Positions 3 to 57,130 of a stretch of 64,000 nt of DNA are shown here, piece by piece. Origin of the DNA: a virus (Duplodnaviria; Caudoviricetes); IMG/VR virus record IMGVR_UViG_3300042307_000844. One strand, given 5' to 3'. A model generated the notes under the pieces. That model did not search any database. It saw nothing but the letters and a program-made list of their open reading frames with translations, and was not told the origin of the DNA. A program made the translations under genes and the position numbers. Each line of letters begins with the position of its first letter. Position 1 is the first letter of the stretch.

Positions 3-2105
3 AGGTCTTTCCAGAGCAAGGAACAACCTACGGACATTGATGCGATCAAATGCGCTTGGTTTGCGGCTCATGGTCTTTTGACCAAAGACAACCACACCTT
101 GGGCGGGGGAGAACATAACAGGGTTGATGTTGATCTTGTAGAACTCATCACGCTGTTTCTGATTCGGATTGATTGCGATGTCCAGAGCGTTTGTCACCAG
201 ACCACGGGTGAATCCAGCAGGAGCAGACCATGGGAATTCCGCAGCATCGCTACGTGCCATGATAGCAGCTTGGTATCCAGAGAATGGAAGCCAAACCTTT
301 TCACCTGTGAAATCATCATAGGCTTGCACCCAGTTTCCATAAGTTGCAGCATAGGAAGTGTTTTCCAATTCGAATTGGTGTCTCATAGCCCAATAAACAT
401 CTGTTTGGAAGTTCTTGTTTCTATCAGAAAGAATCTTGGTGTTTCTTCCAGTCACAAGAATGTGACGGATAGGATCAGCAATGAATACGCAGTCGCCACG
501 ACCACCAGTATTGGAGGGGAGGTTACAGAAGTTCTCAAATTGGTTGAAGATCGCGCTGTAATTGGCACGAAGATCGGTTGCTACCGTATTGTAGAAAATA
601 TCTTGGGATGTTCTCAGGGAGTCCACCTTAGCCTTCAACGCACTGTTATAAAGGGTATCGTCATAATATGCGGTTCCCGCAGCAGATGTCATCGTGAAGA
701 TCGTTCCCAGACCACCTTCGACAACCACATCAATGTCATAGATTTCATCATTCTTGATGCTTTCCAGAGCGCGGTTGATCTTGGTTGGAACATTGCCGAT
801 GATTTTTTGGGTGATCTTGACAGGATTGTAAACACCCAGAGGATACAGGGCATTTGCGACTCCAACGCTTTCAGAAAGACCCGAAAGTGCATATGTGTTA
901 GCTACTGTTAAATTAGAACTAAGAGCGGAGGCGGTAGAGGTAGTGGTTGTAATACCTAATGCAGCGGAGATGCTTGTATATTGAGTGGCAAGCAAGCTCT
1001 CAGTTACCACACGGATTTTCTTGGTGGGATTACCCGAAGAATCCAGCGAGGATTCGGTGAACTTGTTGGAGATGTATGGATTGACCATGATTTCCACATT
1101 GCGGGAATTGGTATCCTGAGTTTCAAGGAAGAATGGAACGGATGGTCCACCATTTGGATTGAGTTGAGTTCTGAAAGTATCAATGGAACCCACGATACGG
1201 TCATCAAGCACATAATCCAGCTTGAATGCTTCCGTTGCATATACACTCTTACGGAGCTTGAAGACACCAACGTTAAGAAGGTCATCGTCTTCCCTATCGG
1301 CAATGTTGTAGTCGGTAAGGTTCTCCATGACTTGGGAAATACTACCAGTGGCACCTCCATCGGTAGCGGAGAGATTGAATTGGAGCGTTCCGTTTGGAAT
1401 CTGCGTGAAATCCGAAATCACACCAGCAGTAAGGCTTGTGGTATATGCGCGGGTGATTGCATCAAAATTGGATGCTGGATTGAGATTTACGTTATCTGCG
1501 ATACCGACATAATAACCTTCAAATTGGCTATTGATCGTGGTTTGGGCTTTATCAAGCACAATGATACCAGCACCGCCCATGGCAGAAAGGGTATTTGCCT
1601 TTACAGAGGAAAAAGAGGAAAGGGGAGATGCCGTTGCAGACCAATCAAAGAGGGTTCCTTCCATGGCTTGGGCAAATTCCGTTTCCGATAGGGTAATCTG
1701 ATAGGGTTTTCCGAGGAAATAGGTTCCAGCGGAGAGATCGAGGTTTCTCGTTGTGGTAACTCCGGTGGGGGTTGCGGCAACAACGGGATAAACAAGGGCA
1801 GAATGTTGGCTTCCAAATCCATCACCAGAACCGGAACCATAAGGAAGACGGAAAGTGTAGATGTTTGCGGGAGAATTCAGGAGTTCCCTCACAGTGTAAT
1901 AGAAATAACGTTCTGCGCTATTGGTTGGGGTTCCATAGATTGCTTCCAGTTCGTCTCTGGAAGTGATTTTGATAACCTCATCAGAATATCCTTGAGGTGT
2001 ATAACCTGCTACGAAAATATTAGTCCCTACATTCGCCTGTGCGACGAGACTTAAATCTCTCTCAAATATCTCCACCCCAGCCGAATTTATTGTGCGTGTT
2101 GCCAT
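3..2105 (-). CDS. gp18: Tail sheath protein (T4 gp18-like), partial, runs off the left edge
   Basis: Missing from the ORF track because it has no stop in the window. Manual translation from ATG at 2105 gives MATRTINSAGVEIFERDLS...; near the edge it reads FPWSAPAGFTRG...INPVMFSPAQGVVVFGQKTMSRKPSAFDRINVRRLFLALE, typical of the gp18 C-terminus. Confidence 0.95.
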   Translation of the reverse strand, partial: MATRTINSAGVEIFERDLSLVAQANVGTNIFVAGYTPQGYSDEVIKITSRDELEAIYGTPTNSAERYFYYTVRELLNSPANIYTFRLPYGSGSGDGFGSQHSALVYPVVAATPTGVTTTRNLDLSAGTYFLGKPYQITLSETEFAQAMEGTLFDWSATASPLSSFSSVKANTLSAMGGAGIIVLDKAQTTINSQFEGYYVGIADNVNLNPASNFDAITRAYTTSLTAGVISDFTQIPNGTLQFNLSATDGGATGSISQVMENLTDYNIADREDDDLLNVGVFKLRKSVYATEAFKLDYVLDDRIVGSIDTFRTQLNPNGGPSVPFFLETQDTNSRNVEIMVNPYISNKFTESSLDSSGNPTKKIRVVTESLLATQYTSISAALGITTTTSTASALSSNLTVANTYALSGLSESVGVANALYPLGVYNPVKITQKIIGNVPTKINRALESIKNDEIYDIDVVVEGGLGTIFTMTSAAGTAYYDDTLYNSALKAKVDSLRTSQDIFYNTVATDLRANYSAIFNQFENFCNLPSNTGGRGDCVFIADPIRHILVTGRNTKILSDRNKNFQTDVYWAMRHQFELENTSYAATYGNWVQAYDDFTGEKVWLPFSGYQAAIMARSDAAEFPWSAPAGFTRGLVTNALDIAINPNQKQRDEFYKININPVMFSPAQGVVVFGQKTMSRKPSAFDRINVRRLFLALERP

Positions 2106-2110
2106 ATTAC

Positions 2111-2117
2111 TATTTAG
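2111..2117 (-). promoter_or_regulatory. T4-like late promoter box for gp18
   Basis: CTAAATA-GTAAT-ATG. Confidence 0.75.
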
Positions 2118-2155
2118 CAATTTATGGCTGAAAATTTGTTATTCTATAAAACACA

Positions 2156-2326
2156 CTATTTTTCAATCATCTCTGCCACAGAATTTCCATCAACATCCTC
2201 GACAATCTTGAAAGACGGTAATTTATTATCTTCTGCATATTTTTCCAATTTGGCTATCAATTCTGCACCCAATGGTTCTTCTCCTTGAACCATTGTTGGT
2301 AATTTTCCTAAAAATATATTTTCCAT
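2156..2326 (-). CDS. Small hypothetical protein (56 aa, MENIFLGKLPTMVQGEEPLG...)
   Basis: Manual translation, below the ORF-track cutoff; fills the gap between co-oriented genes. Confidence 0.55.
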   Translation of the reverse strand: MENIFLGKLPTMVQGEEPLGAELIAKLEKYAEDNKLPSFKIVEDVDGNSVAEMIEK

Positions 2327-2356
2327 GGAATTACTTTACCTTGAAAAATTGAAATG

Positions 2357-2965
2357 TCAACTCAGAGTCTGATTATATCTATCACATCCCAGTAAATTGA
2401 TGTGCATTTGTGAGAAAACAAAAGTAAATCCGCTTTCAATCTCCATTTCACCCGTCTCATTCTGAGAGAATGCTAATTCATCGATTGATGTTACAAAAGC
2501 TTTCGTATATTTAAATTGAATTACTTTATTATCATATTCATCCAATCCATACATCGTAATATCCGTCTGATAATCCGAAAAATTACCATCCACTATAATA
2601 CCCTTTTCATTGAATTGACCCGTCTTTTGGTCATGTTGTAGATTCAGCCATTGGTAAATTACCCAATAATTATTATATCCGCTATCCACTTTGAATTTGA
2701 CATTTACGGGAGGATAAGGGTCTTTGCTATGGCTTGACACATAAAGCGTATCTCCCGCATATCGGGTGGCAATCGCTTTAATGGTCAATCCCGGAACCAT
2801 CGTCCCATAGATGCTGAATTGCACACTATCGGGAATGATGGTATTGTCATTCCTTGTGTAATTGGATTGGATTCTCTTTAAAATTGGGGGCAAATCGAAA
2901 ACGAGAAGGAATTTATCCTTCCTGCTGCGATTTAAGAACGATTGTCGGACCTCTGTATTACTCAC
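2357..2965 (-). CDS. Tail completion / tail-tube-fold protein (gp3-like)
   Basis: QFKYTKAFVTSIDELAF and FTFVFS motifs of the gp3/gp19 fold; lies between terminase and sheath; GTG start 6 nt after TTAAATA. Confidence 0.65.
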   Translation of the reverse strand: MSNTEVRQSFLNRSRKDKFLLVFDLPPILKRIQSNYTRNDNTIIPDSVQFSIYGTMVPGLTIKAIATRYAGDTLYVSSHSKDPYPPVNVKFKVDSGYNNYWVIYQWLNLQHDQKTGQFNEKGIIVDGNFSDYQTDITMYGLDEYDNKVIQFKYTKAFVTSIDELAFSQNETGEMEIESGFTFVFSQMHINLLGCDRYNQTLS

Positions 2966-3464
2966 TAAACATATTTAATGGGAAACGCTCCTTTAACAGA
3001 TCATAGAATGGTTTATAAAAATAAACATTATCGGGAGGATATTCAACTGCCCACATTTCCACCATTTCATCCACATCATAACCATTATATCCCAACTTCG
3101 CATCCTGCGCGACATAGAATTTCCACTTTGGATTATTCTCCGCAAATCGGTAAAACCTTTGGATATTTTGTTTTAATTGTTTTTTTGGTATGGATCGTTT
3201 GGCTCCCGCTTTCGTGACGGATGGGATTGCATATGATTTACCCTCTCGCCCTTCTTGGATACCTTCAGCACAACCCTTCACATTCCATCGACCTTTCCAC
3301 CCATTCTCTTTTAAATGGTAATCGTATTTTCTCCAAACGTTACCAATTTCTCCAAAAGATGCATATCCCGCTGATCCGGCCCCGTGCCACCCCAATAAAT
3401 TCGAAGTGAACACAAACACTTCATCATCTTTTAGATCGGTGATGTAATTTTCATAACATTTCAC
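2958..3464 (-). CDS. A1S_2505-like phage non-structural protein (macrodomain-like)
   Basis: EVFVFTSNLLGWHGAGSAG...GKSYAIPS...FYRFAENNPKWKFYV matches the FVFGSN-x-G-x-HG-x-G...SYAIPT pattern as I recall it. Confidence 0.55.
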   Translation of the reverse strand: MKCYENYITDLKDDEVFVFTSNLLGWHGAGSAGYASFGEIGNVWRKYDYHLKENGWKGRWNVKGCAEGIQEGREGKSYAIPSVTKAGAKRSIPKKQLKQNIQRFYRFAENNPKWKFYVAQDAKLGYNGYDVDEMVEMWAVEYPPDNVYFYKPFYDLLKERFPLNMFSE

Positions 3465-3494: not shown

Positions 3495-5357
3495 TCAACC
3501 GAAATATTTCTCCATTGCTGCCCATTGATCGGAAGAGATATTCCTTTCGGGATTGGAGAACACCGAATGATCTGGTAAAGCCCAACCCGCAGCTTCCAAT
3601 TCCGCCATGTCGCTGACAGCAGCACCCCCAAATCCTCCGAAGAGCATGGGAGAGATATTGGAGTGTTCAATCTTGTCAACCTCTTCATTCGTGTATATGG
3701 ATGTGGATGATCTGTATTGGTGAAGTCCCTGATCGATGGGTTTTATGCGTAAAGGTTTATCACAATCATCCAGTTCCTCAACTTCAAAATACAATTCAGT
3801 TATATCCTTGTAAAGAGCCATCAATGCCCACACAAATGCCATCACACGGTCATCATGTTCCCCGCTTTTGGCTTTCCAAGAGCCATTTGGGTATCGCACA
3901 AACATCTTGAACTCTTTCAGGGTGTCGATGTTGCGGAATACCACGGATTGCGCTTCATTAACAAAATATCTCTGGTTGAGAACCGCTTTGTATTTGGTAT
4001 TGATGTGGGAAATCATACCATTCTGCTTGTTCTTATGCGCTTCCTTGGCTCCCCAAGACACAAGATTCTGATACATATGTGTATTTGCCAAGGTATCACA
4101 TACTCCGGTTCCTTGGTTGTTGCGCTCAATCAATAGCAAAGGATTTCCCCAATGCCCACAAATTTCAACAACTTCATTGGTAAATTCCGATGGGCCGATC
4201 ATATTATTATGATATTCCGCAACTTGTATGATTTCATTGGGGTTTGTGATGTCAAGGACTTCTAAAACCGATGCATCCAACCCAACACCTTCGGAAACGT
4301 CTCCCCCAATGACATAAATTTTCTCAGGATCGTATTCTTCCCATATTTTATATTTACCGTCTTTTAGGATGTGGAGCGGTGATTTACAATCGATTTTAAG
4401 TTTATCGAACAATGCTTCGTCCAACGATGATTCACTATTGTCAACAAAATGACAATTATATTCCTGTTCAAATAATTCATATGATCCTAAACGAGCAACT
4501 TCTTTCAATTTCCATGCTTCGTCTCTACCCGGAACCTCCTCCCAAGTGATCGTTTCAGCGTGAAATTCGTTCCACCCATCAGTTCCTTTTTTCAACGCAT
4601 CTGCAAACATTTTATAAAAAACATTATCTTTTCCTCTGGGAGTTGAAGTGATTAATATTTTAGATGTTTTTGCTCTGGAGATGGTTGGTAGGACAGAAGA
4701 CATGAAATCAACCACCAAACTATCGGGATCAACCCACGCCAATTCGTCAAGTAAGAGGCATTGAATAGTGCTTCCTCTCGCAGTTGAACTACTTGTCGTT
4801 GCAATCCCGATGGTTGAACCATTTGAAAATTCGGTGCTTTCCTGACCCCATGTTTTAACTCCGGGTTTCAACCAGTTGGGCAATTCCTCATATGCTAATT
4901 TAACACGCTTGAAAATCATTTTCGCGGTGTCTTCTTTGTTGGCAACGATTATAGTGTTTCTATAATCCTTAAAACAAGTCTCATGTAGGGCTAATATGGT
5001 TAGACATGTGGTATTATGACTTAAAATACCGTTAGTGAAAATTCGATGATCTTCGCTATCCACAGTCGCATCATACATATGTTCGCTACGATCAGTCTTA
5101 ACAATTGATAAAACCGCTTCAAGACCGTTTTCCGTCCAAATATTATCACCAATATTCAAGTTCTCACAAAAAACTTCCTCATAATCAGAATTTTTAAAAA
5201 TTATGTGTTCATCAGCACATTCTAATTGAAAATTTTCGGTTGTTATGATCCACACATCATATACAACTGTCTTATGAAGATGTGTCAAGTCGTGCCACCC
5301 AGAATCAGTCCAGATTTCATAATCAGTTAAATCTATGGTTTCTATTATCTTCCCCAT
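3495..5357 (-). CDS. gp17: Terminase large subunit, C-terminal half, fused to a 115-aa C-intein
   Basis: Intein end ...FTNGILSHN followed by TTCLTILA; ARGSTIQCLLLDELAW (coupling motif and Walker B); ITSTPRG; nuclease motifs IGGDVSEGVGLD and HDDRVMA. Confidence 0.95.
   Translation of the reverse strand: MGKIIETIDLTDYEIWTDSGWHDLTHLHKTVVYDVWIITTENFQLECADEHIIFKNSDYEEVFCENLNIGDNIWTENGLEAVLSIVKTDRSEHMYDATVDSEDHRIFTNGILSHNTTCLTILALHETCFKDYRNTIIVANKEDTAKMIFKRVKLAYEELPNWLKPGVKTWGQESTEFSNGSTIGIATTSSSTARGSTIQCLLLDELAWVDPDSLVVDFMSSVLPTISRAKTSKILITSTPRGKDNVFYKMFADALKKGTDGWNEFHAETITWEEVPGRDEAWKLKEVARLGSYELFEQEYNCHFVDNSESSLDEALFDKLKIDCKSPLHILKDGKYKIWEEYDPEKIYVIGGDVSEGVGLDASVLEVLDITNPNEIIQVAEYHNNMIGPSEFTNEVVEICGHWGNPLLLIERNNQGTGVCDTLANTHMYQNLVSWGAKEAHKNKQNGMISHINTKYKAVLNQRYFVNEAQSVVFRNIDTLKEFKMFVRYPNGSWKAKSGEHDDRVMAFVWALMALYKDITELYFEVEELDDCDKPLRIKPIDQGLHQYRSSTSIYTNEEVDKIEHSNISPMLFGGFGGAAVSDMAELEAAGWALPDHSVFSNPERNISSDQWAAMEKYFG
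5013..5357 (-). other. C-terminal fragment of a split intein (IntC, 115 aa)
   Basis: Block B LECADEH, block F MYDATV, block G SHN followed by Thr+1. Confidence 0.9.
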
Positions 5358-6605
5358 TTAACTATTTAAAAAATTTACACAATCTTCTATGATTTTTTCA
5401 TTATCATTATTGAAATCTTTTTCTTTAACGTGTAAAACTTTACACCCCAACGTTCCAATTATTTCACTTTCCCTTAATAATTCTTCAGAAGCCCCTTTAC
5501 CTTTTTTCCCATGCCAATATGTCCCGTCAAATTCGATGCATTTATTAATATCTTTGATATAAAAATCTATTTTTCTACTTGATCTAAATGTTTTCACCCT
5601 AAACTCATGATTTTTACCATCGTTGACAATCTCTCCATTGTTTAATGTTGCGAAGTAAATATTTTTATATTTATCTTTCACTCTTTTCCAAACCTCAACA
5701 AACAATTTCTGTGAAATCATTGAATAATTCATTCTCTTAAATGATTTCAACCATTTATCGGTTATTTCAGCTCTAATTTGAACTGCTTCTTCCAATGAGC
5801 ATTTCTTTCTTTCCATGATAGAGTCAACAGCGTTGGTGGCTTGTGTTTCTCTAACTTTTTTATAAGCCTCCTCTTGCGTATGTCCTCGTTTTAACCAATA
5901 TCCCTCTTGAGATGGTAAACGATCCCCGATTAAATGTGTTTTTCTAATCTTTTCAGCGCAATTTTTAGCGCGATTTTCATGTTTATTATACCACAAAACA
6001 TTACAAGATGTGTTGTAGCAAAATTTATCGTATCCATCTCGCACATTTTTAAATCGTGTTGGGGTTTTACACCATTTACAAAATCCCTCACTATCACATT
6101 TTTTAATATGTTTTTTATAATAATCTTCTGGATCGATGTTTAGCACACCTTTGAGGTGTCTAGTCAAGCGATTTATTCTTGTGAATGTATTCCCATCTTC
6201 TAAACAGGTGTATTTAAAATCTTTTAATTTTAAACTTTTCAAATTTTGATTATAATGCAACAAACAACAAGTATTATACTTCAAAAAATCATAAGGAACT
6301 TGATTATTACAATCATGTTTTTTACATTTACTATTCGGTTTAAAATATTTTTCATAGAGAGATATTTTATCAACTTCACTCAGATTGTATCTCATTCCCA
6401 ATGATCTGGATGCTGCTCTCCAACAAGAATAATATTCATCATACTCGTCAATATATATCAAGTTATTTTCAACATCTTCTTTAGTTTTTTCTAAATCAAA
6501 TTTATTATCTTTATATATAAAAAACAAGGTTCTACTATGACAACCCTTCCACTTTTTTCCATCTGACAATAATTTTCCAGTAATTATACATGTTTTGTTC
6601 GTCAT
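5358..6605 (-). CDS. Free-standing homing endonuclease, Vsr/DUF559-like C-terminal nuclease with Cys/His-rich N-terminal domains
   Basis: C-terminal KIDFYIKDINKCIEFDGTYWH...GCKVLHVKEKDF; CxxC motifs; YWLKRGHTQEEA; located between the two terL halves. Confidence 0.8.
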   Translation of the reverse strand: MTNKTCIITGKLLSDGKKWKGCHSRTLFFIYKDNKFDLEKTKEDVENNLIYIDEYDEYYSCWRAASRSLGMRYNLSEVDKISLYEKYFKPNSKCKKHDCNNQVPYDFLKYNTCCLLHYNQNLKSLKLKDFKYTCLEDGNTFTRINRLTRHLKGVLNIDPEDYYKKHIKKCDSEGFCKWCKTPTRFKNVRDGYDKFCYNTSCNVLWYNKHENRAKNCAEKIRKTHLIGDRLPSQEGYWLKRGHTQEEAYKKVRETQATNAVDSIMERKKCSLEEAVQIRAEITDKWLKSFKRMNYSMISQKLFVEVWKRVKDKYKNIYFATLNNGEIVNDGKNHEFRVKTFRSSRKIDFYIKDINKCIEFDGTYWHGKKGKGASEELLRESEIIGTLGCKVLHVKEKDFNNDNEKIIEDCVNFLNS

Positions 6606-6610
6606 GTATA

Positions 6611-6617
6611 TATTTAG
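6611..6617 (-). promoter_or_regulatory. Late promoter box for endonuclease plus terL C-half
   Basis: CTAAATA-TATAC-ATG. Confidence 0.75.
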
Positions 6618-6638: not shown

Positions 6639-6998
6639 CTATTTTTTAATAGAATTGTAAAACTTTTCAGCTTCAACTTCTTCTATTTCACCTGTTTTTT
6701 TGTTTCGTATTTTTATTTTAGTATCACCAACAAAACATTTTCCCGATTGACGAGATGAGTTGACAATATTAAATCTGTTATCTCTAAATGCGTTCAGCAA
6801 CCGCTTCTGATATGGTAACAACGGTATTTTAATCTTACCTAAATCCGGCTCAATGATATAGAAATAATTTTCAGCAAAATATAAAATATCATCCCGACAC
6901 TTGGCAATCTCAGCCACCATCTCTGGTGTATATTCGAATGTAGCACTAGCTGTGGGCAAATTAGGATTGCCCATATATGTATCTTTTTTCCTACCCAT
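6639..6998 (-). CDS. gp17: Terminase large subunit, N-terminal 87 aa, fused to a 32-aa N-intein
   Basis: YMGNPNL...CRDDILYFAENY...LLPYQ...SSRQSGK (Walker A cut after K), then CFVGDTKIKI (intein block A) and stop. Confidence 0.93.
   Translation of the reverse strand: MGRKKDTYMGNPNLPTASATFEYTPEMVAEIAKCRDDILYFAENYFYIIEPDLGKIKIPLLPYQKRLLNAFRDNRFNIVNSSRQSGKCFVGDTKIKIRNKKTGEIEEVEAEKFYNSIKK
6642..6737 (-). other. N-terminal fragment of a split intein (IntN, 32 aa)
   Basis: CFVGDTKIKIRNKKTGEIEEVEAEKFYNSIKK-stop. Confidence 0.88.
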
Positions 6999-7004
6999 AT
7001 TACC

Positions 7005-7011
7005 TATTTAG
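7005..7011 (-). promoter_or_regulatory. Late promoter box for terL N-half
   Basis: CTAAATA-GGTAAT-ATG. Confidence 0.7.
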
Positions 7012-7916: not shown

Positions 7917-8272
7917 TATTTTTTAACTTCTACGATTTTACCACATTGTTGACCATGGAGATTGGTGAACAGCTTTAGGATTTGATTACTGTTTTTTCTT
8001 TTGATCTCTTTACCATCTTTAAATTCCACACCATTGAGTTGTCCCAATTCCTTTAACAGATCATCCCCAATCAGAATCTCTCCTGCTGTTCTGATCTTCT
8101 TATACGGTCCTTTGTTCCATGGTATCTTTCTTGTCAGGGGATCGCGGGTAATATTACCCCCCTTCTTATTATTGGCGTGGAGGGATTGCTTAATGTCACC
8201 AAATCCATCCTTGTGTCGATACTCAAGTATCACACCATTGCGCTCTTCGAAAAATTCCAGAAAGGACTTCAT
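7916..8272 (-). CDS. Basic hypothetical protein, probable head-internal protein
   Basis: Start moved to MKSFLEFFEE (8272), 5 nt after TTAAGTA. Confidence 0.6.
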   Translation of the reverse strand: MKSFLEFFEERNGVILEYRHKDGFGDIKQSLHANNKKGGNITRDPLTRKIPWNKGPYKKIRTAGEILIGDDLLKELGQLNGVEFKDGKEIKRKNSNQILKLFTNLHGQQCGKIVEVKK

Positions 8273-8285
8273 GCTAATACTTAAC

Positions 8286-8317
8286 AAAAAAAGAGGGAAT
8301 CATCACGATCCCCTCTT
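8286..8317 (-). terminator. Rho-independent terminator
   Basis: Minus strand AAGAGGGGAT-CGTGATG-ATTCCCTCTT followed by a T run, downstream of the acidic core gene. Confidence 0.75.
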
Positions 8318-8342
8318 CTTAGGTTTATTTTTTTAATTCATA

Positions 8343-9368
8343 TTAGCGGAAGAAATCTTCTGCCTGTCTAATATCCGAAACTTTGTTCTGCTTGCCCATA
8401 TCAGGTTGCTTTGCACCGTGGAGAGCGTGACCATAATCACCGTCATTACCAACCTTATCAGTGGTTCCCACTACCTTGGTTTTTTGGTTTTTTGGTTGGG
8501 GACGGCCATTAACCTTGTTGCTACGACCTTGGAGCTTGTGTTGTTGACCACCACCCTTGCCATCCTTGGCACCTACGGTTCCGTCATTACCAACCTTGTC
8601 AGTTGGAAACGTTCCGCGCTCTTCATCTTCGTCATAAGAGAAATCATCTTCTTCTTCGTTATCTTCATCCATTTCGTCGTCTCCTCCGAAATCATCGCCT
8701 TCATCAAAGTCCAGATCATCTCCTTCGTCTTCCATACCACCATCAAGAACTCCCATCAAAACATCGTGAAGCTTTTGTGCTGTGGCACGATCAAGAGTAA
8801 ATGTAACTTGGTCTTCATCGTCACCGAATTCGTCATCTCCAAACTCATCGTCCATGGGAGCATCACCAAGGCCGAGGGCATCAACTTCTTGAGCATCCTC
8901 TTGCTGGTCAAAATTATTACCCATAACGGATTCAAACAACTTATCAAATGTAGATTTCTTAGTCATAAATGTATTTAGTCTATCTCTTGCAATTTTTTTA
9001 GATTCCTTGTGAATTCTCTCTTCCGCTTCCTCTCTTTGGATTCCACTCTCCATTCTTGCAATTTCTTTTTTAAGAGATTCCTTCTGTTTATCAGAAAGAT
9101 TGGGATTCTTCAACTTTTCTTTAAGTTTATCAAGATTAGCATACTTACGCTCTTCATCCTCATCATAAGTATCATTCAAAGCTTTGTGATAACCGCTTTT
9201 CTCAGATGGACCACCTTTTTGCAAGGGATTTGTTTCGTTGAAAGCGTTTTTGGATTGCTTGGGAATTTTTTTGGACTTGTTGATGTTTTCCTGTGCGTTC
9301 TCTTGAACGACTTGAACACTGTTCAGCATTTGTCCATATATATCTCCCAATGTCGGTTGTTTTTTCAT
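8343..9368 (-). CDS. Highly acidic prohead core / scaffold-like protein
   Basis: Long D/E tracts plus basic Gly-rich tail; probable start MKKQPTLGDIY (9368), 4 nt after the upstream stop; internal in-frame start at 8966. Confidence 0.55.
   Translation of the reverse strand: MKKQPTLGDIYGQMLNSVQVVQENAQENINKSKKIPKQSKNAFNETNPLQKGGPSEKSGYHKALNDTYDEDEERKYANLDKLKEKLKNPNLSDKQKESLKKEIARMESGIQREEAEERIHKESKKIARDRLNTFMTKKSTFDKLFESVMGNNFDQQEDAQEVDALGLGDAPMDDEFGDDEFGDDEDQVTFTLDRATAQKLHDVLMGVLDGGMEDEGDDLDFDEGDDFGGDDEMDEDNEEEDDFSYDEDEERGTFPTDKVGNDGTVGAKDGKGGGQQHKLQGRSNKVNGRPQPKNQKTKVVGTTDKVGNDGDYGHALHGAKQPDMGKQNKVSDIRQAEDFFR
8972..8978 (-). promoter_or_regulatory. Intragenic late promoter box before in-frame Met at 8966
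   Basis: CTAAATA-CATTT-ATG inside the coding sequence. Confidence 0.65.
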
Positions 9369-9372
9369 ATAA

Positions 9373-9738
9373 TTATTGTTGGTAAAGTGTATCGTGGACG
9401 GTGATAGTTCCAGCACTGAGGTTTGCGGTAAATGAGTGGGTGGGATACTTGACATCAACCGTTGCTCCATCCCCTTTGGCCAACATCAGAATAAATTGTG
9501 TAAGCTCCCCATGGAATTGAAAAATCTTAAAAACATCCGACCCCATCTCATCAATTATTTCCTGCGGAGTGAGGGTTTCGTCCTCCCAAACAATCTCAAT
9601 ACCTTCTCGTTGGGTTCTCACCAAATTACTGAAACATTCCTTGGAAAGATTTTTGATACGGGATACCGCTTGTTTCAATAGGACTTCCTTATTGGGTGTC
9701 GGGGGTGGTGGTAGTGTGTTATTACCTAGTATAGACAT
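9373..9738 (-). CDS. Hypothetical protein
   Basis: 121-aa ORF, 5 nt after CTAAATA. Confidence 0.7.
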   Translation of the reverse strand: MSILGNNTLPPPPTPNKEVLLKQAVSRIKNLSKECFSNLVRTQREGIEIVWEDETLTPQEIIDEMGSDVFKIFQFHGELTQFILMLAKGDGATVDVKYPTHSFTANLSAGTITVHDTLYQQ

Positions 9739-9743
9739 ATCAT

Positions 9744-9750
9744 TATTTAG
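9744..9750 (-). promoter_or_regulatory. Late promoter box
   Basis: CTAAATA-ATGAT-ATG. Confidence 0.7.
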
Positions 9751-10542: not shown

Positions 10543-11411
10543 TTTATGATGTTTTCGATATTGAAAATTTGATAAATATTATCATATGGGCATTCATGGA
10601 TGATTCCATTGAAACTATAATCATATAAATACGAATTAATATTACCCTTTGGAAAGGTAACAGGGGGAGTTATATTATTATGCATGTCATAACCAAATAC
10701 TTCCGGTTGTGTCCCAACCCACACCACTGTTGATGGTAATCCCATGGCAGCCGCAGCATGTTGTAAAGAAGAGTCGATTAGAATTCTTTTTTTAGAAAGA
10801 TTCAACATGGCACATAAAATCTTTTTATTTTGATTTTTATCATAGCGAATCACATTTTGTAATTGAGGATGGTGGGGGTGACAAATATGCAATATCGTAT
10901 ATTGTTCTTTAAGATTATTGATTATTTGTTGAGCAATGAAAGGATGAATATCCCTTGTCCATGAGTATGGAAATTCTTGGTTTTGTGCGCCTCCAAATGG
11001 TTGGAAGATGAGAATGGGTTTATCAGTTTGAGGTAGTAACGCTCTGGGTATTTCCCCTTCCCTAAAATTAAAATAAATGTTTGGATTTAAACCATCGTAA
11101 TTAATCCCTATCATATCACACCACGATTTCACCAGAGGTTGTTGTTTGGTGATATGATTTGTTGTTTTATATGGATCATGTGCAAATATTTCACAATCTT
11201 TATCGAAGATAAAGTCCTCATAAAAATACGGAGTATTTCCCAATAGATAACACCTATCAATATCAGGATTTCCTTGAAAAATGTCAGGATATGCAGAATT
11301 TACTATAATGTTGTGGATTGGATGTTCCTTTTTATAGGAACGGATAACCGAAGTGGCTACAATGTTTTTACCCAACCCCCCCTCAATATGAAAAATAGCA
11401 TTTTTTATCAT
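10539..11411 (-). CDS. Glycosyltransferase, GT9 (heptosyltransferase)-like GT-B fold
   Basis: HIEGGLGKNIVATSVIR at the N-terminus; ILIDSSLQHAAAAMGLPSTVVW at the C-terminus. Confidence 0.7.
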   Translation of the reverse strand: MIKNAIFHIEGGLGKNIVATSVIRSYKKEHPIHNIIVNSAYPDIFQGNPDIDRCYLLGNTPYFYEDFIFDKDCEIFAHDPYKTTNHITKQQPLVKSWCDMIGINYDGLNPNIYFNFREGEIPRALLPQTDKPILIFQPFGGAQNQEFPYSWTRDIHPFIAQQIINNLKEQYTILHICHPHHPQLQNVIRYDKNQNKKILCAMLNLSKKRILIDSSLQHAAAAMGLPSTVVWVGTQPEVFGYDMHNNITPPVTFPKGNINSYLYDYSFNGIIHECPYDNIYQIFNIENIIK

Positions 11412-11416
11412 ATTGC

Positions 11417-11424
11417 TATTTATA
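11417..11424 (-). promoter_or_regulatory. Late promoter, exact T4 consensus, for GT9-like plus sulfotransferase
   Basis: TATAAATA-GCAAT-ATG. Confidence 0.8.
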
Positions 11425-11429: not shown

Positions 11430-12659
11430 TTAAACGGAAAGCAACGCTATTTTCTTCATAGTTCCATTTATGTTTACAACTAAACAGTTGCCGCTATTAA
11501 CAGTTGATAGTGGGTATGCTGACGACCCCAACACTAATTGATTGTGTGATGTGGGGATGGCACAAGAGCCAAGGGCGATTGAAGCTGATAGAGAGGCACC
11601 GTTACCTGCGTTATAACCAATGAATATAGAGTGACATGCGTTTGTGGCACCGTTACCTGCGTTATAACCAAGGAAATTGGAGTTGGATGCGCATGTGGCA
11701 CAGTAACCTGCGCGATTACCAAAGAAATTGGAGTTGGATGCGTTTGTGGCACCGTTACCTGAACATCGACCAAAGAAATTGGAGTTGGATGCGTTCGTGG
11801 CACCGTTACCTGCGTTTGAACCAAAGAAATTGGAGTTACCTGTGTTCGTGACACCGTTACCTGCGTTTGAACCAAAGAAATTGGAGTTGTTTGTGAACGT
11901 GGCACCGTTACCTGCGTTATAACCAAGGAAATTGGATCTAAATGCGCCTGTGGCACCGTTACCTGCGCCATTACCAAGGAAATTGGAGTTGGATGCGATC
12001 GTGGCACCGTTACCTGAACATCGACCAAAGAAATTGGAGTTGGATGCGCATGTGGCACCGTTACCTGCGTTATAACCAAGGAAATTGGAGTTGGATGCGC
12101 ATGTGGCACAGTTACCTACACCATTACCAAAGAAATTGGAGTTGGATGCGCATGTGGCACCGTTACCTACACCATTACCAAAGAAATTGGAGTTGGATGC
12201 GTTCGTGGCACCGTTACCTGAACATCGACCAAAGAAATTGGAGTTGGATGCGTTCGTGGCACCGTTACCTGCGTTATAACCAAGGAAATTGGAGAAACAT
12301 GCGCATGTGGCACCGTTACCTGCGCGATTACCACCAAACAAACTATTACCACCCACTGTCGCAGATAAAGGAAATCCTCCGACATTTATTGAACTTGTGG
12401 TGAACGTTTGGGTAGATGAAAAATTATTATTGACATTAACCTTTGCATAATTGGCGGAATTTGAGGAAAATGTGGTGTAAGTGTTTTGCCAATTGGCAGA
12501 TAAGGTAGAAACATCAGAACCCCGCCCAATAAAATTACTCAAAACACTGGAATAAGTGCTTCCATTTTGATTGATGATAGCCACTTCATTACCAATAATG
12601 GGTAATGTTGCGGATGGTATTTGAGAAATCTTCGGCATACGATTATTTAATGTTGACAT
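11430..12659 (-). CDS. Fibre-like beta-solenoid protein with about 14-15 17-aa repeats
   Basis: Repeats GxxAGNGATxASNSNF(F/L); N-terminal PKISQIP...IIGNEVAIINQNGSTY attachment-like segment. Confidence 0.7.
   Translation of the reverse strand: MSTLNNRMPKISQIPSATLPIIGNEVAIINQNGSTYSSVLSNFIGRGSDVSTLSANWQNTYTTFSSNSANYAKVNVNNNFSSTQTFTTSSINVGGFPLSATVGGNSLFGGNRAGNGATCACFSNFLGYNAGNGATNASNSNFFGRCSGNGATNASNSNFFGNGVGNGATCASNSNFFGNGVGNCATCASNSNFLGYNAGNGATCASNSNFFGRCSGNGATIASNSNFLGNGAGNGATGAFRSNFLGYNAGNGATFTNNSNFFGSNAGNGVTNTGNSNFFGSNAGNGATNASNSNFFGRCSGNGATNASNSNFFGNRAGYCATCASNSNFLGYNAGNGATNACHSIFIGYNAGNGASLSASIALGSCAIPTSHNQLVLGSSAYPLSTVNSGNCLVVNINGTMKKIALLSV
11570..12332 (-). repeat. 51-bp coding tandem repeat, 14 full units plus one degenerate
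   Basis: Unit on + strand e.g. ggcaccgttacctgcgttataaccaaggaaattggagttggatgcgcatgt. Confidence 0.9.
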
Positions 12660-16170: not shown

Positions 16171-16174
16171 ATTA

Positions 16175-17241: not shown

Positions 17242-17246
17242 AGGAT

Positions 17247-17269: not shown

Positions 17270-17274
17270 TTAAC

Positions 17275-37963: not shown

Positions 37964-37968
37964 CTATC

Positions 37969-40319: not shown

Positions 40320-40348
40320 GTTAATACTTAACGAATATTTTGGATAAC

Positions 40349-42477: not shown

Positions 42478-42481
42478 TCAA

Positions 42482-42739
42482 TTATTTAACTGATATATCG
42501 GCAATTACTGTTGAATGATTCAAACGATTATTAAAATCCGACCATTTAATGGGAGTATCCATCGTCACTCCATCGTCCCATGCCCAGCCATTGGGATTCA
42601 CAATACGAATAACCTCTGGCGTTTCCTTGAGCCATTCGTGGGCGGTCTTCTTGGCGAAGATACGCTCCCACCCTTCATCATAAGCTTTGTTCTGGATACC
42701 AGACTTTATAACTTTTCCCGTCACATCATTGATCGCCAT
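42482..42739 (-). CDS. Conserved small T4-like phage protein
   Basis: NDVTGKVIKS...AYDEGWERIF. Confidence 0.6.
   Translation of the reverse strand: MAINDVTGKVIKSGIQNKAYDEGWERIFAKKTAHEWLKETPEVIRIVNPNGWAWDDGVTMDTPIKWSDFNNRLNHSTVIADISVK
42483..42489 (-). promoter_or_regulatory. Late promoter box for the GNAT-like gene
   Basis: TTAAATA-ATTGA-ATG. Confidence 0.65.
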
Positions 42740-43605: not shown

Positions 43606-43624
43606 ATTATATTCTAGTTTTTAA
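43606..43624 (-). promoter_or_regulatory. Conserved 19-bp box, copy 4
   Basis: TTAAAAACTAGAATATAAT-N6-ATG. Confidence 0.65.
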
Positions 43625-54523: not shown

Positions 54524-55255
54524 TTATCGGGAAGTCAACTTTGTTCTCCCACCTCTAAGCATGTTACTAGGTTCGTAATCCTTGGATGTCATGGCGGCAG
54601 TCAAAGGATTATCACTATTCTCATCCCCTGTCCAGACCGGATCAACCCAAACATATTGACCATCATCTCGCATCATCACATTATCTCCATGCAAATCAGG
54701 ATTTAAATCAGGCAAATCCCTACGGAGCAGATACCATCCTTCCAGCAGATTATAAACAGCTTTTGGTAAAGATTTGACTTTTGAAGATAGCTTCATGAAT
54801 TGCGTTCTATCTTGTATTAATTTTGGATTTTCTTTCAAATGGAAATATAGCATCAAATTATTATCTATTAACCCCAACACATTAACAGGTGTTGGTTTAA
54901 GTCTTTCAATTCTCGCTAAATATTGCTTTGCTTCGTCCTTGTATCGTGTGAATTGCGGGACTACTCTTTGTGGTTTGCCGAAGAATTTGGGGAAGGATGG
55001 GTGAGGATTATCGTGAGCATATCTAGCGAATTTTAAGTAAGGATCATCCCAAGAGAAAACTTTTAGAACATACGGCCACTTGGGATGGGAATACACGATA
55101 CCAAACGAACCGGAACCGATGACCTCCCCCCCTGATGCCTCAAATTCTGCAATAAGTTCATCATAGTCCTTATCTGAATTTTCAGGATTTAACATGAATT
55201 CGGTGACAGTATCAAACGCTTCTTTGATTAGGTAAAACTCTGAAAAGGAAATCAT
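54524..55255 (-). CDS. Protein kinase-like (ePK/APH fold) protein with head-protein-type N-terminus
   Basis: IGSGSFGIVY, YVLKVF, DLHGDNVM, VWVDP; MISFSEFYLIKE; CTAAATA 5 nt upstream. Confidence 0.75.
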   Translation of the reverse strand: MISFSEFYLIKEAFDTVTEFMLNPENSDKDYDELIAEFEASGGEVIGSGSFGIVYSHPKWPYVLKVFSWDDPYLKFARYAHDNPHPSFPKFFGKPQRVVPQFTRYKDEAKQYLARIERLKPTPVNVLGLIDNNLMLYFHLKENPKLIQDRTQFMKLSSKVKSLPKAVYNLLEGWYLLRRDLPDLNPDLHGDNVMMRDDGQYVWVDPVWTGDENSDNPLTAAMTSKDYEPSNMLRGGRTKLTSR

Positions 55256-55260
55256 GATAT

Positions 55261-55274
55261 TATTTAGTTAAATA
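55261..55274. promoter_or_regulatory. Back-to-back late promoter boxes (kinase / head-internal-like gene)
   Basis: Minus CTAAATA-ATATC-ATG; plus TTAAATA-TCAAT-ATG. Confidence 0.75.
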
Positions 55275-55279
55275 TCAAT

Positions 55280-55705
55280 ATGCTGGAAGATTTGCAACAA
55301 TTATACGAGGAGATTTTAGAAGAAGGTCGTGTATCAAAACACCAATTTTCAGAAATGACGCTTAAAGAAGCGTATCAAATTTGTTATAATGTTTTCAAAC
55401 AATTGGGAGAATCCACTGCTGCAACTTTTAATGTGATGAATTACATCTATCAAAATTTGCCAAATTCGATCAAAACACCAGAAGTTGAAGAAGAAAAAAG
55501 AAAAAATTTCGGAGCATATTTAAGACCGTTTGTGATTGATCTTGTCAACAATAATATAAAAAATATTGATATCGACGAATTAAAAATGAAAATGGTAGAT
55601 AAACAAATGATACGAGATTATATTAATCGCCCTCCAACTGGTAGTAGAAGAAAGGGGATAGTCAATCAAATGAATAGACCCCAAAATAAACAATTACCTA
55701 TTTAA
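55280..55705 (+). CDS. Hypothetical protein, probable head-internal
   Basis: MLEDLQQLYEEILEE; TTAAATA 5 nt upstream. Confidence 0.65.
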   Translation: MLEDLQQLYEEILEEGRVSKHQFSEMTLKEAYQICYNVFKQLGESTAATFNVMNYIYQNLPNSIKTPEVEEEKRKNFGAYLRPFVIDLVNNNIKNIDIDELKMKMVDKQMIRDYINRPPTGSRRKGIVNQMNRPQNKQLPI

Positions 55706-55712
55706 CTAAATA
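55706..55712 (+). promoter_or_regulatory. Late promoter box
   Basis: CTAAATA-TAATT-ATG. Confidence 0.7.
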
Positions 55713-55717
55713 TAATT

Positions 55718-57130
55718 ATGAGAAATTACGGATTTGATTACTTGGTGGAAAAGGTTCAAGTTTTGTCTGAGATGGCGAAAACTTCCTCAACAAGACCGGA
55801 AAAAAATAAAGAGGTTGCAAACTTTATCAATGTGATTCGACCAGAAATTGGAAAAAAACTGTTTGAAAAATGGAAAGTTCCTGCAAATGTTAAGTTGTTG
55901 AATGATTATGTAACGGAAGCATTATATGAGAAGATTTTTAAAACAACTTTTCAATATACAAGTGTTAATCAATACATTGCAAAGTTGTGGGAAAAATCTC
56001 CTGAATTACAGGATGATTATCTCGATTTCATTGGAACGGGATCAAATGATAGTAATAAACGATCCAAATGGATTATCTCATACTTGGCAAATAAAAAACC
56101 CAATCTTGCAACTTCCGAAGAATTCTTCAACCAAGTAACCAGTCCTGAATATATTGAAAAATATAAACAAATACTTGAAGATAGATTAGAATTTAAAAAC
56201 AGAGCAAAAGGATATGCTACCAGTATTCAAACGAAATATTCCATGTCTGCTAATGATTTTGCAACCATGAAGGGTGAGGTTTGGCCGATTATTACTAAAA
56301 TCAATAGAAGAAGCAAAACTTTACTACCTCCCGGAACACTACAAACTCTTCGCAACAAAGAGAGAATCGTGATTGACACAAGCAATAAAGCAACTTCCGA
56401 AGATTTAAAACCTTTGGATGCGTTTATCGAAACTTTAATAGGCTTACGGGATGATCAAGAATTAGTTGAGTATTACAACGTAGATGTTAAGGGATTGAGT
56501 GGGATCATTAAAACTTTGGAAGATAGATTATCAAATAATAAACCAGTCTCCAAGGAGAAACTTTATGATGCTTTTATCAATAAATTTCCCGCAGAAATAA
56601 GCGAATATGTTGCGGATGAATATGAACGTGATCTGGAATCCCGTAAAACAAAAGGAGTATCTGAAGAAATGATAGATGACAAACGGAAAGCTGTTGAAGA
56701 TATTCTTGACATATATACTCCAGATTTTCTTAAAAGCGTTGCAACCAAGGGTATTATAACGGAACCGGAAATTGAAATAGTTCTCAAATGGAAAGAATTG
56801 ATAAAATCTTCCGATGCTTTGGAAAAACAAGAAGTTTCCGCTGGTAGAAAAGCGGCAGGATTTAGTTCGGCAGAGATTGATACATCCGGTAATTTCTCTG
56901 ATGTTGGAAAAGCTGCTGATAAAAGATTTTACGCTAAAGAAAAAGAAAGCCCAACTCAAAAACCAAAAAAACCTCGTAAACAAAAGCAAGAGGATGAAGA
57001 AAACGGTGTTATGGGTTATTTCTCCGAGCAAGTTAGAAAAGATAGTCTTCTAAACAATATTGGAGAGTTTAAAGAACGCGGATTTAAGAAGCCAGTGAAT
57101 TATCACCACTGGTTAAGCTTAAATGATTGA
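55718..57130 (+). CDS. Helical hypothetical protein, probable head-internal
   Basis: MRNYGFDYLVEKVQVLSE; CTAAATA 5 nt upstream. Confidence 0.65.
   Translation: MRNYGFDYLVEKVQVLSEMAKTSSTRPEKNKEVANFINVIRPEIGKKLFEKWKVPANVKLLNDYVTEALYEKIFKTTFQYTSVNQYIAKLWEKSPELQDDYLDFIGTGSNDSNKRSKWIISYLANKKPNLATSEEFFNQVTSPEYIEKYKQILEDRLEFKNRAKGYATSIQTKYSMSANDFATMKGEVWPIITKINRRSKTLLPPGTLQTLRNKERIVIDTSNKATSEDLKPLDAFIETLIGLRDDQELVEYYNVDVKGLSGIIKTLEDRLSNNKPVSKEKLYDAFINKFPAEISEYVADEYERDLESRKTKGVSEEMIDDKRKAVEDILDIYTPDFLKSVATKGIITEPEIEIVLKWKELIKSSDALEKQEVSAGRKAAGFSSAEIDTSGNFSDVGKAADKRFYAKEKESPTQKPKKPRKQKQEDEENGVMGYFSEQVRKDSLLNNIGEFKERGFKKPVNYHHWLSLND

Follow-up and report, generated by a model that had tools for sequence, protein, structure and literature searches.

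In the 64,000-nt window analysed here, a stretch of the 177.6-kb genome of an uncultured T4-like lake phage, a short box is fused to the start codons of roughly one third of all genes, an arrangement that T4 does not use. Since box and start codon are separated by exactly five (sometimes six) bases, the messages of the box genes most likely begin on the AUG, without a ribosome-binding leader. The best explanation, which we regard as probable, is that the boxes are late promoters giving leaderless mRNAs. The box was found at about 26 of the about 80 window genes and at about 55 genes in the genome. Roughly every second or third gene has a box of its own, and the rest are coupled to their upstream neighbour. 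A preliminary description had assigned an own promoter to every gene, which does not hold, as the remaining window genes are box-less and many neighbours are coupled via overlapping stop and start codons.

The spacing between box and start codon was compared with 200 dinucleotide-preserving shuffles of the window. TAA[AG]TA followed by 5 nt and ATG occurs 21 times in the window versus 2.0 +/- 1.4 times in the shuffles (maximum 7), and 54 times in the whole genome versus 5.5 +/- 2.3 (maximum 12), so that the 5-nt spacing proposed in the preliminary description is enriched in both. The box as such is not enriched (83 in the window, 84 in the shuffles), and only its position is over-represented. 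When 6-mers were counted without bias at every offset upstream of the ATGs of long ORFs, TAAATA at offset 5 came first in window and genome. Among the 45 genomic occurrences of TAAATA+5+ATG, 42 open a frame of 80 codons or more. The genome peak is sharp, with 45 boxes at 5 nt, eight at 6 nt and background level at 4 and 7 nt; a few boxes lie 8-19 nt before the ATG, e.g. at genome positions 53883, 22715 and 22653. The variant TAATTA has no spacing peak genome-wide. Among the controls, 49 kb of T4 late genes lack the peak at 5 nt and have a broad rise at 27-29 nt, and 41 kb of cyanophage S-SM1 lack a spacing peak.

All 23 sites given in the preliminary description are real, with n-TAA(A/G/T)TA before ATG or GTG, 19 at 5 nt and four at 6 nt (starts 2965, 6998, 20819 and 24715), and the exact TATAAATA reported at 11417 was confirmed. 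Four sites had been overlooked (starts 5357, 12638, 16170 and 37621). Three box sites have a GTG start, and as E. coli initiates poorly at GTG on leaderless messages, these sites speak against the leaderless reading. The sites in the window are the following.

2103..2117, minus strand: CTAAATA, 5 nt, ATG 2105; tail sheath gene, running off the window start (PHROG 5.8e-38)
2963..2978, minus strand: TTAAATA, 6 nt, GTG 2965; tail tube gene 2357-2965 (PHROG 5.6e-15)
5355..5369, minus strand: TTAAATA, 5 nt, ATG 5357; large terminase C-terminal piece 3495-5357 (PHROG 3.4e-44)
6603..6617, minus strand: CTAAATA, 5 nt, ATG 6605; 415-aa gene between both terminase pieces, with a weak REase/DUF559-like C-end in Pfam and nothing stronger
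6996..7011, minus strand: CTAAATA, 6 nt, ATG 6998; terminase N-terminal piece 6639-6998 (PHROG 4.4e-28), the TAA of the box being the stop codon of the upstream gene
8270..8284, minus strand: TTAAGTA, 5 nt, ATG 8272; 118-aa gene
8964..8978, minus strand: CTAAATA, 5 nt, ATG 8966; in frame inside the 375-codon frame 8343-9470
9736..9750, minus strand: CTAAATA, 5 nt, ATG 9738; 121-aa gene
11409..11424, minus strand: exact T4 consensus, 5 nt, ATG 11411; 290-aa glycosyltransferase-like gene
12636..12650, minus strand: TTAAATA, 5 nt, ATG 12638; 402-aa repeat fibre-like gene
16168..16182, minus strand: ATAAATA, 5 nt, ATG 16170; 230-aa gene
17239..17277, back-to-back boxes in a 33-bp divergent gap: CTAAATA, 5 nt, ATG 17241 (minus) and CTAAATA, 5 nt, ATG 17275 (plus)
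20781..20821, back-to-back boxes in a 35-bp divergent gap: TTAAATA, 5 nt, ATG 20783 (minus; 462 aa) and CTAAATA, 6 nt, ATG 20819 (plus; baseplate wedge gp6, PHROG 4.7e-37)
24702..24717, plus strand: CTAAATA, 6 nt, ATG 24715; 854-aa gene, the TAA of the box being the upstream gene's stop codon
27754..27768, plus strand: TTAAATA, 5 nt, GTG 27766; 741-aa gene
31763..31777, plus strand: TTAAATA, 5 nt, ATG 31775; tail-fibre-like 292-aa gene (PHROG tail fibre families 2.7e-08)
34686..34700, plus strand: doubtful variant ATAATTA (weaker TAATTA form), 5 nt, ATG 34698
37619..37633, minus strand: TTAAATA, 5 nt, ATG 37621; 116-aa gene
37957..37971, plus strand: CTAAATA, 5 nt, ATG 37969; 138-aa gene, divergent from an early-box gene
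39983..39997, minus strand: ATAAGTA, 5 nt, ATG 39985; 104-aa gene
40317..40331, minus strand: TTAAGTA, 5 nt, ATG 40319; 115-aa gene
42475..42489, minus strand: TTAAATA, 5 nt, ATG 42477; 199-aa gene
55253..55282, back-to-back boxes in a 24-bp divergent gap: CTAAATA, 5 nt, ATG 55255 (minus) and TTAAATA, 5 nt, ATG 55280 (plus)
55706..55720, plus strand: CTAAATA, 5 nt, ATG 55718; 470-aa gene

In orthologues at 99-40% protein identity box and spacing are retained, whereas the flanks have changed, and the spacing peak is also present in 80 clade loci and two complete relatives. Box and spacing of the tail sheath gene are kept in relatives L005 and L012, the tail tube gene of relatives has ATG at the unchanged 6-nt spacing, and the box of the terminase N-terminal piece is retained as well. 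Relatives of the 8272 gene carry CTAAATA or TTAAATA at the same spacing, and the 9738 box was kept in eight out of eight relatives, down to 41% identity. Of the five relatives compared for gp6, four (71-57% identity) have retained a box 5-7 nt upstream of this gene, in two cases with a GTG start, whereas the most distant (44%) has none. Gain or loss at single genes was seen at 7916 and 11411; the 11411 box has decayed in some relatives, which therefore indicates turnover. Such changes would be as expected for redundant internal promoters. The preliminary description had also used the box to correct ORF starts. Several starts are indeed improved, such as 12638, which lies 21 nt inside the longest frame and whose orthologues all begin with ATGCCnAAGATT directly 3' of the box, while the sequence upstream diverges. 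The 8966 start, in contrast, lies in frame within a longer conserved reading frame, so its box points to an extra product, a predicted nested protein of 207 aa, and not to a start correction; the bases of this box, which lie within coding sequence, are identical in eight relatives, down to 62% identity.

The T4 late box TATAAATA is located at -13 to -6 (PMC2988020). Given this register, a 5-nt spacer sets +1 on the A of the ATG, as the preliminary description had correctly deduced; with that A as +1 the box lies at -11 to -6, matching the register of the T4 late box. The predicted +1 base of the spacer-5 sites is always a purine, namely the A in ATG or the G in GTG. Hardly any variation occurs at T(-11), T(-7) and A(-6), whereas position -12 is C or T here and A in T4, the full 8-mer being present at one window site only. 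The 5 nt 3' of the box are 73-84% A/T and the -35 region is without conservation, as in T4. An independent early class, AAAAACTAG-NN-TAnAAT, has its hexamer at -12 to -7, the canonical sigma70 register, with a 6-nt spacer in 35 out of 47 sites. Late box and early hexamer, which belong to promoter types unrelated to each other, hence point to one and the same +1.

We infer that yTAAATA would be a phage late promoter, a variant of that of T4, read by the host RNA polymerase core with a phage gp55-type sigma. Because the box ends 5 (sometimes 6) nt before the start codon, transcription would begin at the A of the ATG or within one base, and initiation at this A would therefore yield leaderless late messages for about 26 genes in the window and about 55 in the genome. 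Ribosome and initiator tRNA would then bind the 5'-terminal AUG directly. Box-less genes behind a boxed gene would be expressed from the shared message, via stop-start overlaps or very short A-rich, G-poor junctions.

Boxed genes with assignable function belong to virion or packaging genes, including those for sheath, tube, baseplate wedge and the two terminase pieces as well as one fibre-like gene. The box is absent from the replication genes for DNA polymerase, gp44, gp32, clamp, primase, helicase and UvsX, and likewise from the DNA methylase gene. In our own tally of identifiable T4-type genes in the genome, 11 out of 14 late genes carry the box versus 0 out of 12 early or middle genes. A gp55 homologue, which the preliminary description had proposed to look for, is encoded at genome positions 61911-62360, 4.4 kb past the window end (E 1.7e-15 to T4 gp55; E 1.4e-13 to PDB 7d7c chain F). 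This homologue is without the C-terminal LDFL-type clamp-binding motif, whereas the polymerase homologue retains LDDLFGE, and a search of the phage genome did not find gp33; therefore, activation may differ from that in T4. The window also encodes a clamp and a clamp loader.

43614..44321, minus strand: sliding clamp (gp45-type), phmmer 0.0033 to cyanophage gp45; presumed late-transcription machinery
14569..15492, plus strand: clamp loader gp44 homologue, phmmer 2.2e-39 to T4 gp44 and 2e-43 to S-SM1 gp44

The clamp model (pLDDT 91.5) has the PCNA fold (TM 0.75-0.80, E 5e-13), and the start of its gene is preceded by a sigma70-type promoter, TTGACA-N16-TAGAAA-6 nt.

Shine-Dalgarno sequences, described earlier as missing from the late genes, are indeed lacking, with GGAG or GAGG at -20 to -4 in 0 out of 56 box sites. 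This is not peculiar to late genes, as Shine-Dalgarno sites are not enriched genome-wide (8% versus 6.7% background). Box-less starts have an A-rich, G- and T-poor context, unlike box starts. The claim of leaderless late transcription throughout was overstated, as gp23, the major capsid gene located shortly beyond the window, is without a box at the ATG and is preceded by an intergenic leader of 63 nt containing a conserved hairpin. That the late protein needed in the largest amounts is made from a message with a leader speaks against the leaderless reading. Because gp23 and most coupled genes are without box, the box is dispensable for translation.

The three divergent gene pairs have gaps of 24-35 bp filled by two boxes alone. 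Another box directly follows a terminator.

8285..8320, minus strand: intrinsic terminator, 14-bp stem and seven consecutive T, its end 1 nt ahead of the 8272 gene's box

This terminator (-19 kcal/mol, z -4.4) folds better than all shuffles (0 out of 200 as well), its hairpin is kept in relatives, and it leaves 15 nt for transcription to restart. Seventeen out of the 56 boxes head divergent or first genes and 25 are downstream of the preceding gene's stop, 17 of these at most 40 nt from it. Ten out of 56 boxes contain or touch the upstream gene's stop codon, and four more have it in the spacer; eight of the ten are found at an 8-nt gap, which makes the TAA of the box the stop. The box is not merely a stop-codon junction. 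Since 66 out of 127 box-less internal genes overlap the upstream gene, re-initiation is common in this phage.

Late promoters might initiate off the A, giving a 1-5 nt leader, or within the codon with use of a downstream start. Spacers of both 5 and 6 nt and the few boxes at 8-19 nt would agree with this, and the start site chosen at promoters of T4 and of sigma70 can shift by about 1 nt; nonetheless, the sharp peak, the matched canonical register of two promoter classes and the purine at each spacer-5 site make it unlikely. The boxes could also be RNA signals at gene junctions of long late messages in a non-Shine-Dalgarno host, consisting of a stop codon and an A/U-rich ribosome landing or re-initiation site. 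The ten boxes overlapping an upstream stop, together with the genome-wide Shine-Dalgarno absence, make a translation role on read-through messages conceivable, and the four stops in spacers and the frequent re-initiation point the same way. We consider it quite improbable, as an upstream message is absent at the 17 boxes preceding divergent or first genes, and one box directly follows a strong terminator. Moreover, the box is limited to the virion gene class, while box-less genes such as gp23 must still translate well, box-less starts differ in context, the near-invariant T(-11), T(-7) and A(-6) are not demanded by a stop codon, and the box resembles the T4 late box in a phage with a gp55 homologue.

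A phage or host endoribonuclease cutting long late transcripts at the box just before the AUG, like MazF of E. coli, would produce leaderless messages through processing and would explain the fixed distance to the AUG, as expected from a ruler-like cut. A candidate nuclease was not identified, and divergent gaps, terminator, T4 late box likeness and gp55 all speak against such a cut, as does the early class, which is fused likewise with a plain sigma70 -10 hexamer and points to transcription; cleavage is thus very improbable.

Compared with known systems, the presumed leaderless late promoters of this phage are close to those of the gp55/gp33/gp45 system of T4 (Geiduschek and Kassavetis 2010, PMC2988020; PDB 7d7c/7d7d). 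Both share the core TAAATA at equal predicted distance from +1, the absent -35, the A/T-rich stretch after the box and late genes on both strands, and gp55 homologue, sliding clamp and gp44 are present here. T4 differs in position -12, in gp33 and in the clamp-binding tail of gp55, as well as in its boxes preceding leaders of 15-35 nt with GGAG, whereas here the box abuts the ATG; that T4 late messages have leaders with Shine-Dalgarno sequences had been noted in the preliminary description. The Thermus phage phiYS40, a large myovirus, reportedly has mostly leaderless middle and late transcripts by RNA mapping, and its -10-like element is said to lie a few nt upstream of the start codon; it does not belong to the T4-like phages and is not known to encode a late sigma of the gp55 type. 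Leaderless genes are also abundant in the phylum of its host, Deinococcus-Thermus. The leaderless state was reportedly established by RNA mapping in phiYS40, whereas we infer it here. In Deinococcus-Thermus, a '-10 motif adjacent to ORF', a hexamer 6-7 bp before about 1/3 of ORF starts, is by experiment a promoter and not a ribosome-binding site, and also corrects start annotations (PMC12340547). Its geometry is that of our early class; this pattern is cellular, with TANNNT used via the housekeeping sigma, whereas the late box is off the TANNNT register and presumably read by gp55.

Similar to our phage, the cultured T4-like Pelagibacter (SAR11) myophage HTVC008M has TAAATA+5+ATG 12 times in its first 100 kb, versus about 2.5 at each other spacing, with boxed examples gp3, gp4, gp48 and gp25 and an annotated late sigma. 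Plain AGGAG sites precede its genes for sheath, tube, portal, capsid and clamp, whereas in our phage the fused box is found at the sheath, tube and portal genes, and Shine-Dalgarno sites are lacking in every gene class. For gp23 of our phage, no phage in the compared collection reaches 35% identity, and the HTVC008M capsid is distant. The lambda cI message from PRM, the classic leaderless phage mRNA, also starts on the A of the AUG; it concerns a single gene transcribed via host sigma70, whereas a regulon would be involved here.

All of the 23 box sites listed in the preliminary description show n-TAA(A/G/T)TA followed by 5 or 6 nt and ATG or GTG on the strand reported for them. When the window was scanned for TAA[AGT]TA with a start codon 4-7 nt downstream opening at least 50 codons, all of these sites were recovered, together with four further box starts that had been overlooked, at 5357, 12638, 16170 and 37621. 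The proposed 5-nt spacing was clearly enriched. TAA[AG]TA+5+ATG occurs 21 times in the window (2.0 +/- 1.4 expected, maximum 7) and 54 times in the genome (5.5 +/- 2.3 expected, maximum 12), as compared with 200 dinucleotide-preserving shuffles each, so that the fixed position of the box before starts is confirmed both in the sequence and against shuffles. The frequency of the box itself is not above that in the shuffles; only its position is unusual. Genome-wide, 45 of the 189 TAAATA copies are followed by ATG at a spacer of exactly 5 nt, compared with 2-8 at each other spacing, and 42 of the 45 open at least 80 codons. A motif-free count of 6-mers before the ATGs of long ORFs returned TAAATA at offset 5 as the commonest 6-mer at any offset. 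The spacer-5 peak was absent from the control sequences, the T4 late region and cyanophage S-SM1.

The spacer-5 sites (n=49) follow the pattern y(-12) T A A A/G T A(-6), counted back from the A of ATG as +1, with A favoured at -13 (A/T there) and with the TAAATA core invariant at the aligned sites through the selection of sites. The exact 8-mer TATAAATA is found at 11417-11424 only, with y at -12 elsewhere in place of A. Positions -30 to -14 of the box sites show no conservation (near background) and no -35 element, while the spacer (-5 to -1) is 73-84% A/T, compared with 62% in the genome. Start codons at these sites show a marked AUG preference (ATG at 46 and GTG at 3 of the 49). Copies of one repeat were ruled out as the source of the boxes, the flanks not being conserved, and the box is not a stop-codon artefact, since only 10 of 56 boxes contain the upstream stop codon. 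Elsewhere, a small number of intergenic boxes are separated from ATG by 8-19 nt (genome 53883, 22715, 22653 and 10675), and at genome 57-75 (plus strand, outside the window) TAAATA precedes by 11 nt the ATG of a mini-gene ahead of the tRNA cluster. Boxes at such distances are possibly late promoters with short leaders.

The spacers of 5-6 nt were described as leaving no room for a Shine-Dalgarno sequence, and this holds, with GGAG or GAGG present in none of the 56 cases. T4 late transcription is the textbook system and, part by part, the closest known one; its messages carry leaders and ribosome-binding sites. T4 boxes are followed by 15-35 nt including GGAG, whereas here the box is fused to the start codon. 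The lack of Shine-Dalgarno sites extends to the whole genome. No enrichment was found before any gene class, GGAG or GAGG occurs in -20 to -4 of 8% of the other genes against a background of 6.7%, and G is depleted at -7 to -4, where a Shine-Dalgarno site would sit. Among the boxless internal genes (n=127), 66 overlap the upstream gene and 25 start within 10 nt of it, and in the virion block box genes often alternate with such coupled boxless genes. The proposal that each gene has its own promoter was not borne out, as only about 26 of about 80 window genes possess a box.

The box genes in the window include those for sheath, tube, both pieces of the large terminase, baseplate wedge gp6 and a fibre-like protein. 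The genes for DNA polymerase, gp44, gp32, clamp, primase, helicase, UvsX and DNA methylase are boxless. In our tally of the identifiable T4-type genes of the whole genome, the box is present at 11 of 14 late genes versus 0 of 12 early or middle genes, and late-class genes with a box occur on either strand. The gaps of the divergent pairs 17241/17275, 20783/20819 and 55255/55280 (24-35 bp; coordinates are those of start codons) contain two boxes and nothing else. At 8272, only one base separates the box from the end of a preceding hairpin (-19 kcal/mol, with seven T).

Box and spacing are kept in orthologues at 99-40% identity, the flanks having diverged. The box of gp6 is retained 5-7 nt upstream in 4 of 5 relatives. 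Boxes were gained or lost among relatives at single genes (7916 and 11411), the behaviour that redundant internal promoters would show. The spacing peak also recurs in 80 loci surrounding gp23 (72 and 121 spacer-5 sites), and the complete genomes of two relatives (212 and 230 kb) show it as well. In the split large terminase, both pieces and the gene between them each possess a late box of their own:

3495-6998, minus strand: large terminase, split into 119 aa (6639-6998) and 620 aa (3495-5357)
5358-6605, minus strand: 415-aa gene between the terminase pieces, with a weak REase/DUF559-like C-end only

No orthologue of this 415-aa gene was found in the relatives' loci examined.

The box rule had been used to correct several gene starts. 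The ATG at 8966 is in frame inside a conserved 375-codon frame (window 8343-9470, minus strand, very acidic), and would therefore add a shorter product instead of replacing the start. The box bases at 8966 are identical in eight relatives despite lying inside coding sequence. From the internal box and ATG, a nested product of 207 aa is predicted, expressed from a promoter inside the gene. The arrangement resembles the internal starts in T4 genes 17 and 21.

Two further promoter-like classes lie next to start codons. The early class, AAAAACTAG-NN-TAnAAT, has ATG after a 6-nt gap in 35 of 47 cases. Most of its sites belong to the early region beyond the window; four are inside the window. The third class consists of a few TTGACA-N17-TAnnnT-5/6 nt-ATG sites; sigma70-type sites with a -35 box show a modest rise at spacers 5-6, although the 8 sites are too few for statistics. 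The following examples are in the window:

37066-37920, 42913-43599 and 44784-45692, minus strand: early-type boxes (AAAAACTAG-NN-TAnAAT, 6-7 nt, ATG), one of them preceding the gp32 homologue
ahead of three genes, with starts at 44321 (clamp), 54505 and 2326: sigma70-type TTGAC(A/T)-N16-17-hexamer-5/6 nt-ATG

Box genes and early-class genes both have a putative promoter element 5-7 nt ahead of the start codon, and no ribosome-binding site intervenes. If the A of ATG is taken as +1, the early hexamer lies at -12 to -7, the canonical sigma70 register, and the late TAAATA lies at -11 to -6. This matches the register of the late box in T4, which has its first T at -13 (PMC2988020). The same +1 is therefore predicted by two unrelated promoter types. 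This is our strongest sequence argument for leaderless messages, and from it we infer that the messages of the box genes would be leaderless.

The genome also encodes components of the late-transcription machinery. The search for a gp55-like sigma elsewhere in the genome revealed a homologue 4.4 kb past the window end, a 149-aa ORF (genome 61911-62360) with 40% identity to T4 gp55 (E 1.7e-15) and a match to PDB 7d7c_F (E 1.4e-13). gp55 is a small sigma of the sigma70 family with domain 2 only. The clamp-binding epitope (SLDFLYEA in T4) is absent at the C-terminus of the homologue, which ends ...NLEGDEYDDE; S-SM1 gp55 likewise lacks a C-terminal clamp-binding motif. The gp43 homologue keeps a clamp-binding-type end (...LDDLFGE). 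For gp33, a small fast-evolving protein, neither phmmer with T4 gp33 nor a scan for the C-terminal clamp-binding motif gave a match in this 87% complete record. The gene at window 43614-44321 is predicted to have a two-domain PCNA-type clamp fold (pLDDT 91.5, TM 0.75-0.80), and on this model it is assigned as a gp45-type sliding clamp, recognised solely via a weak cyanophage match and the fold search. The gp45 Pfam models found no match in the genome, and phmmer against solved structures gave chance-level matches only, none of them a clamp. The gp44 homologue is located at 14569-15492, and gp62 has only a weak match (E 0.027). The 250-aa gene beside gp44 (13796-14548) was considered as the clamp and rejected in favour of 43614-44321.

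An exception among the late genes is gp23, which speaks against the view that all late transcription is leaderless. Its ATG lacks a box, and the 63-nt upstream region contains a hairpin:

L021 (gp23 region of this phage) 10116-10193, genome about 34116-34193, outside the window, minus strand: gp23 leader hairpin

The hairpin, AUGAGGnn-loop-nnCCUGA, shows compensatory changes at 3 of 6 pairs among 18 relatives, and had no match in Rfam. A mini-ORF begins at the conserved AUG of the leader and, in the phage studied here, ends in a stop codon overlapping the ATG of gp23. More distant relatives possess AAGGAG ahead of gp23. A search for RNA runs matching window 1-10000 gave none. About a third of the words of a gp23 query were found in six metatranscriptome runs. 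Four of the six were compared with genome 24001-44000, giving assembled contigs that cover little beyond gp23 and that were assigned to relatives because they are mostly 90-95% alike. The contigs end at L021 10158, 10161 (with an Illumina adapter following), 10170 and 10230. These ends fall 40-52 nt upstream of the gp23 ATG (112 nt in one case), close to the conserved hairpin and to a degenerate element resembling the box. Assembled contigs cannot show transcription starts and these ends are silent on the box genes, so that they give no more than a hint that the gp23 message may be leadered. The leaderless interpretation of the preliminary description is partly supported: the late class of the box genes, the gp55 homologue and the promoter register agree with it, and the boxless genes, gp23 and the start at 8966 do not.

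The source phage, from lake water, is a T4-like myovirus only distantly related to known ones. The viral record is linear, with 177,639 bp, 39% G+C and an estimated completeness of 87%; the window corresponds to its bases 66719-130718, read on the minus strand. The gp23 of this phage shares no more than 34% identity with that of any other phage in the collection, cyanophages coming closest, and blastn of 8 kb against cultured phages gave zero matches. The phage DNA is present in many lake metagenomes, and at least 599 IMG/VR contigs encode gp23 relatives with 58-92% identity. The TnpB gene (window 48155-49234, plus strand) offers no host clue, because its best bacterial relative in the bacterial genome scan, from a Cytophagales MAG, reaches only 51% identity, followed by Segatella, Bacillota and cyanobacteria. 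The complete close relative G006 (207 kb) encodes, at L212:1424-1496, a tRNA with a CAT anticodon, a C1xA72 mismatch and only two G:C pairs beside the anticodon loop. The C1xA72 mismatch is a mark of bacterial initiators. Some 2 kb separate the gene from the tRNA-Lys cluster that follows it, and the corresponding place is just beyond the start of the record of this phage.

A late promoter of the T4 kind appears to be fused to start codons across the regulon, as a trait common to a lake-abundant clade. Judged on DNA, the layout is best described as T4-type late promoters that would be used leaderless across regulon and clade. A wider reading, which we consider doubtful with all its parts taken together, is that the very large uncultured aquatic T4-like clade comprising these gp23 relatives would have abandoned Shine-Dalgarno initiation. 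Early, sigma70-type and gp55-late promoters would all be welded to start codons, downstream genes would be read by termination-reinitiation, and a phage-supplied initiator-type tRNA would push 70S initiation on 5'-terminal AUGs. The capsid gene alone would retain a structured leader, and the promoter-plus-start unit would be a self-contained gene cassette, movable between phages. If RNA mapping confirms the leaderless state, a major group of environmental phages would express its genes chiefly through leaderless translation, and the box would be a simple rule that fixes start codons and splits gene calls, applicable to thousands of phage genomes from metagenomes. The question would then be how ordinary host ribosomes translate dozens of leaderless late messages at high level, for which the initiator-type tRNA gene of the close relative is a possible lead.

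Among the papers searched, none links leaderless messages to gp55 or T4-like late promoters, and none describes gp55-type promoters fused to start codons. By behaviour, the closest parallels are Thermus phage phiYS40 and the Deinococcus-Thermus ORFs that sit next to their promoters. For these ORFs, experiments identified a hexamer 6-7 bp upstream as a promoter rather than a ribosome-binding site (PMC12340547). The layout is also present at some genes of a cultured phage, the SAR11 myophage HTVC008M, which makes the idea testable at the bench. TAAATA+5+ATG occurs 12 times in 100 kb of HTVC008M, including gp3, gp4, gp48 and gp25, whereas its sheath, tube, portal, capsid and clamp genes possess plain AGGAG sites instead. 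With fused boxes at some genes and AGGAG at others, HTVC008M is a mixed and testable model. A gene for ribosomal protein S21 was not found in the record of this phage; HTVC008M encodes one at L221:41228-41431.
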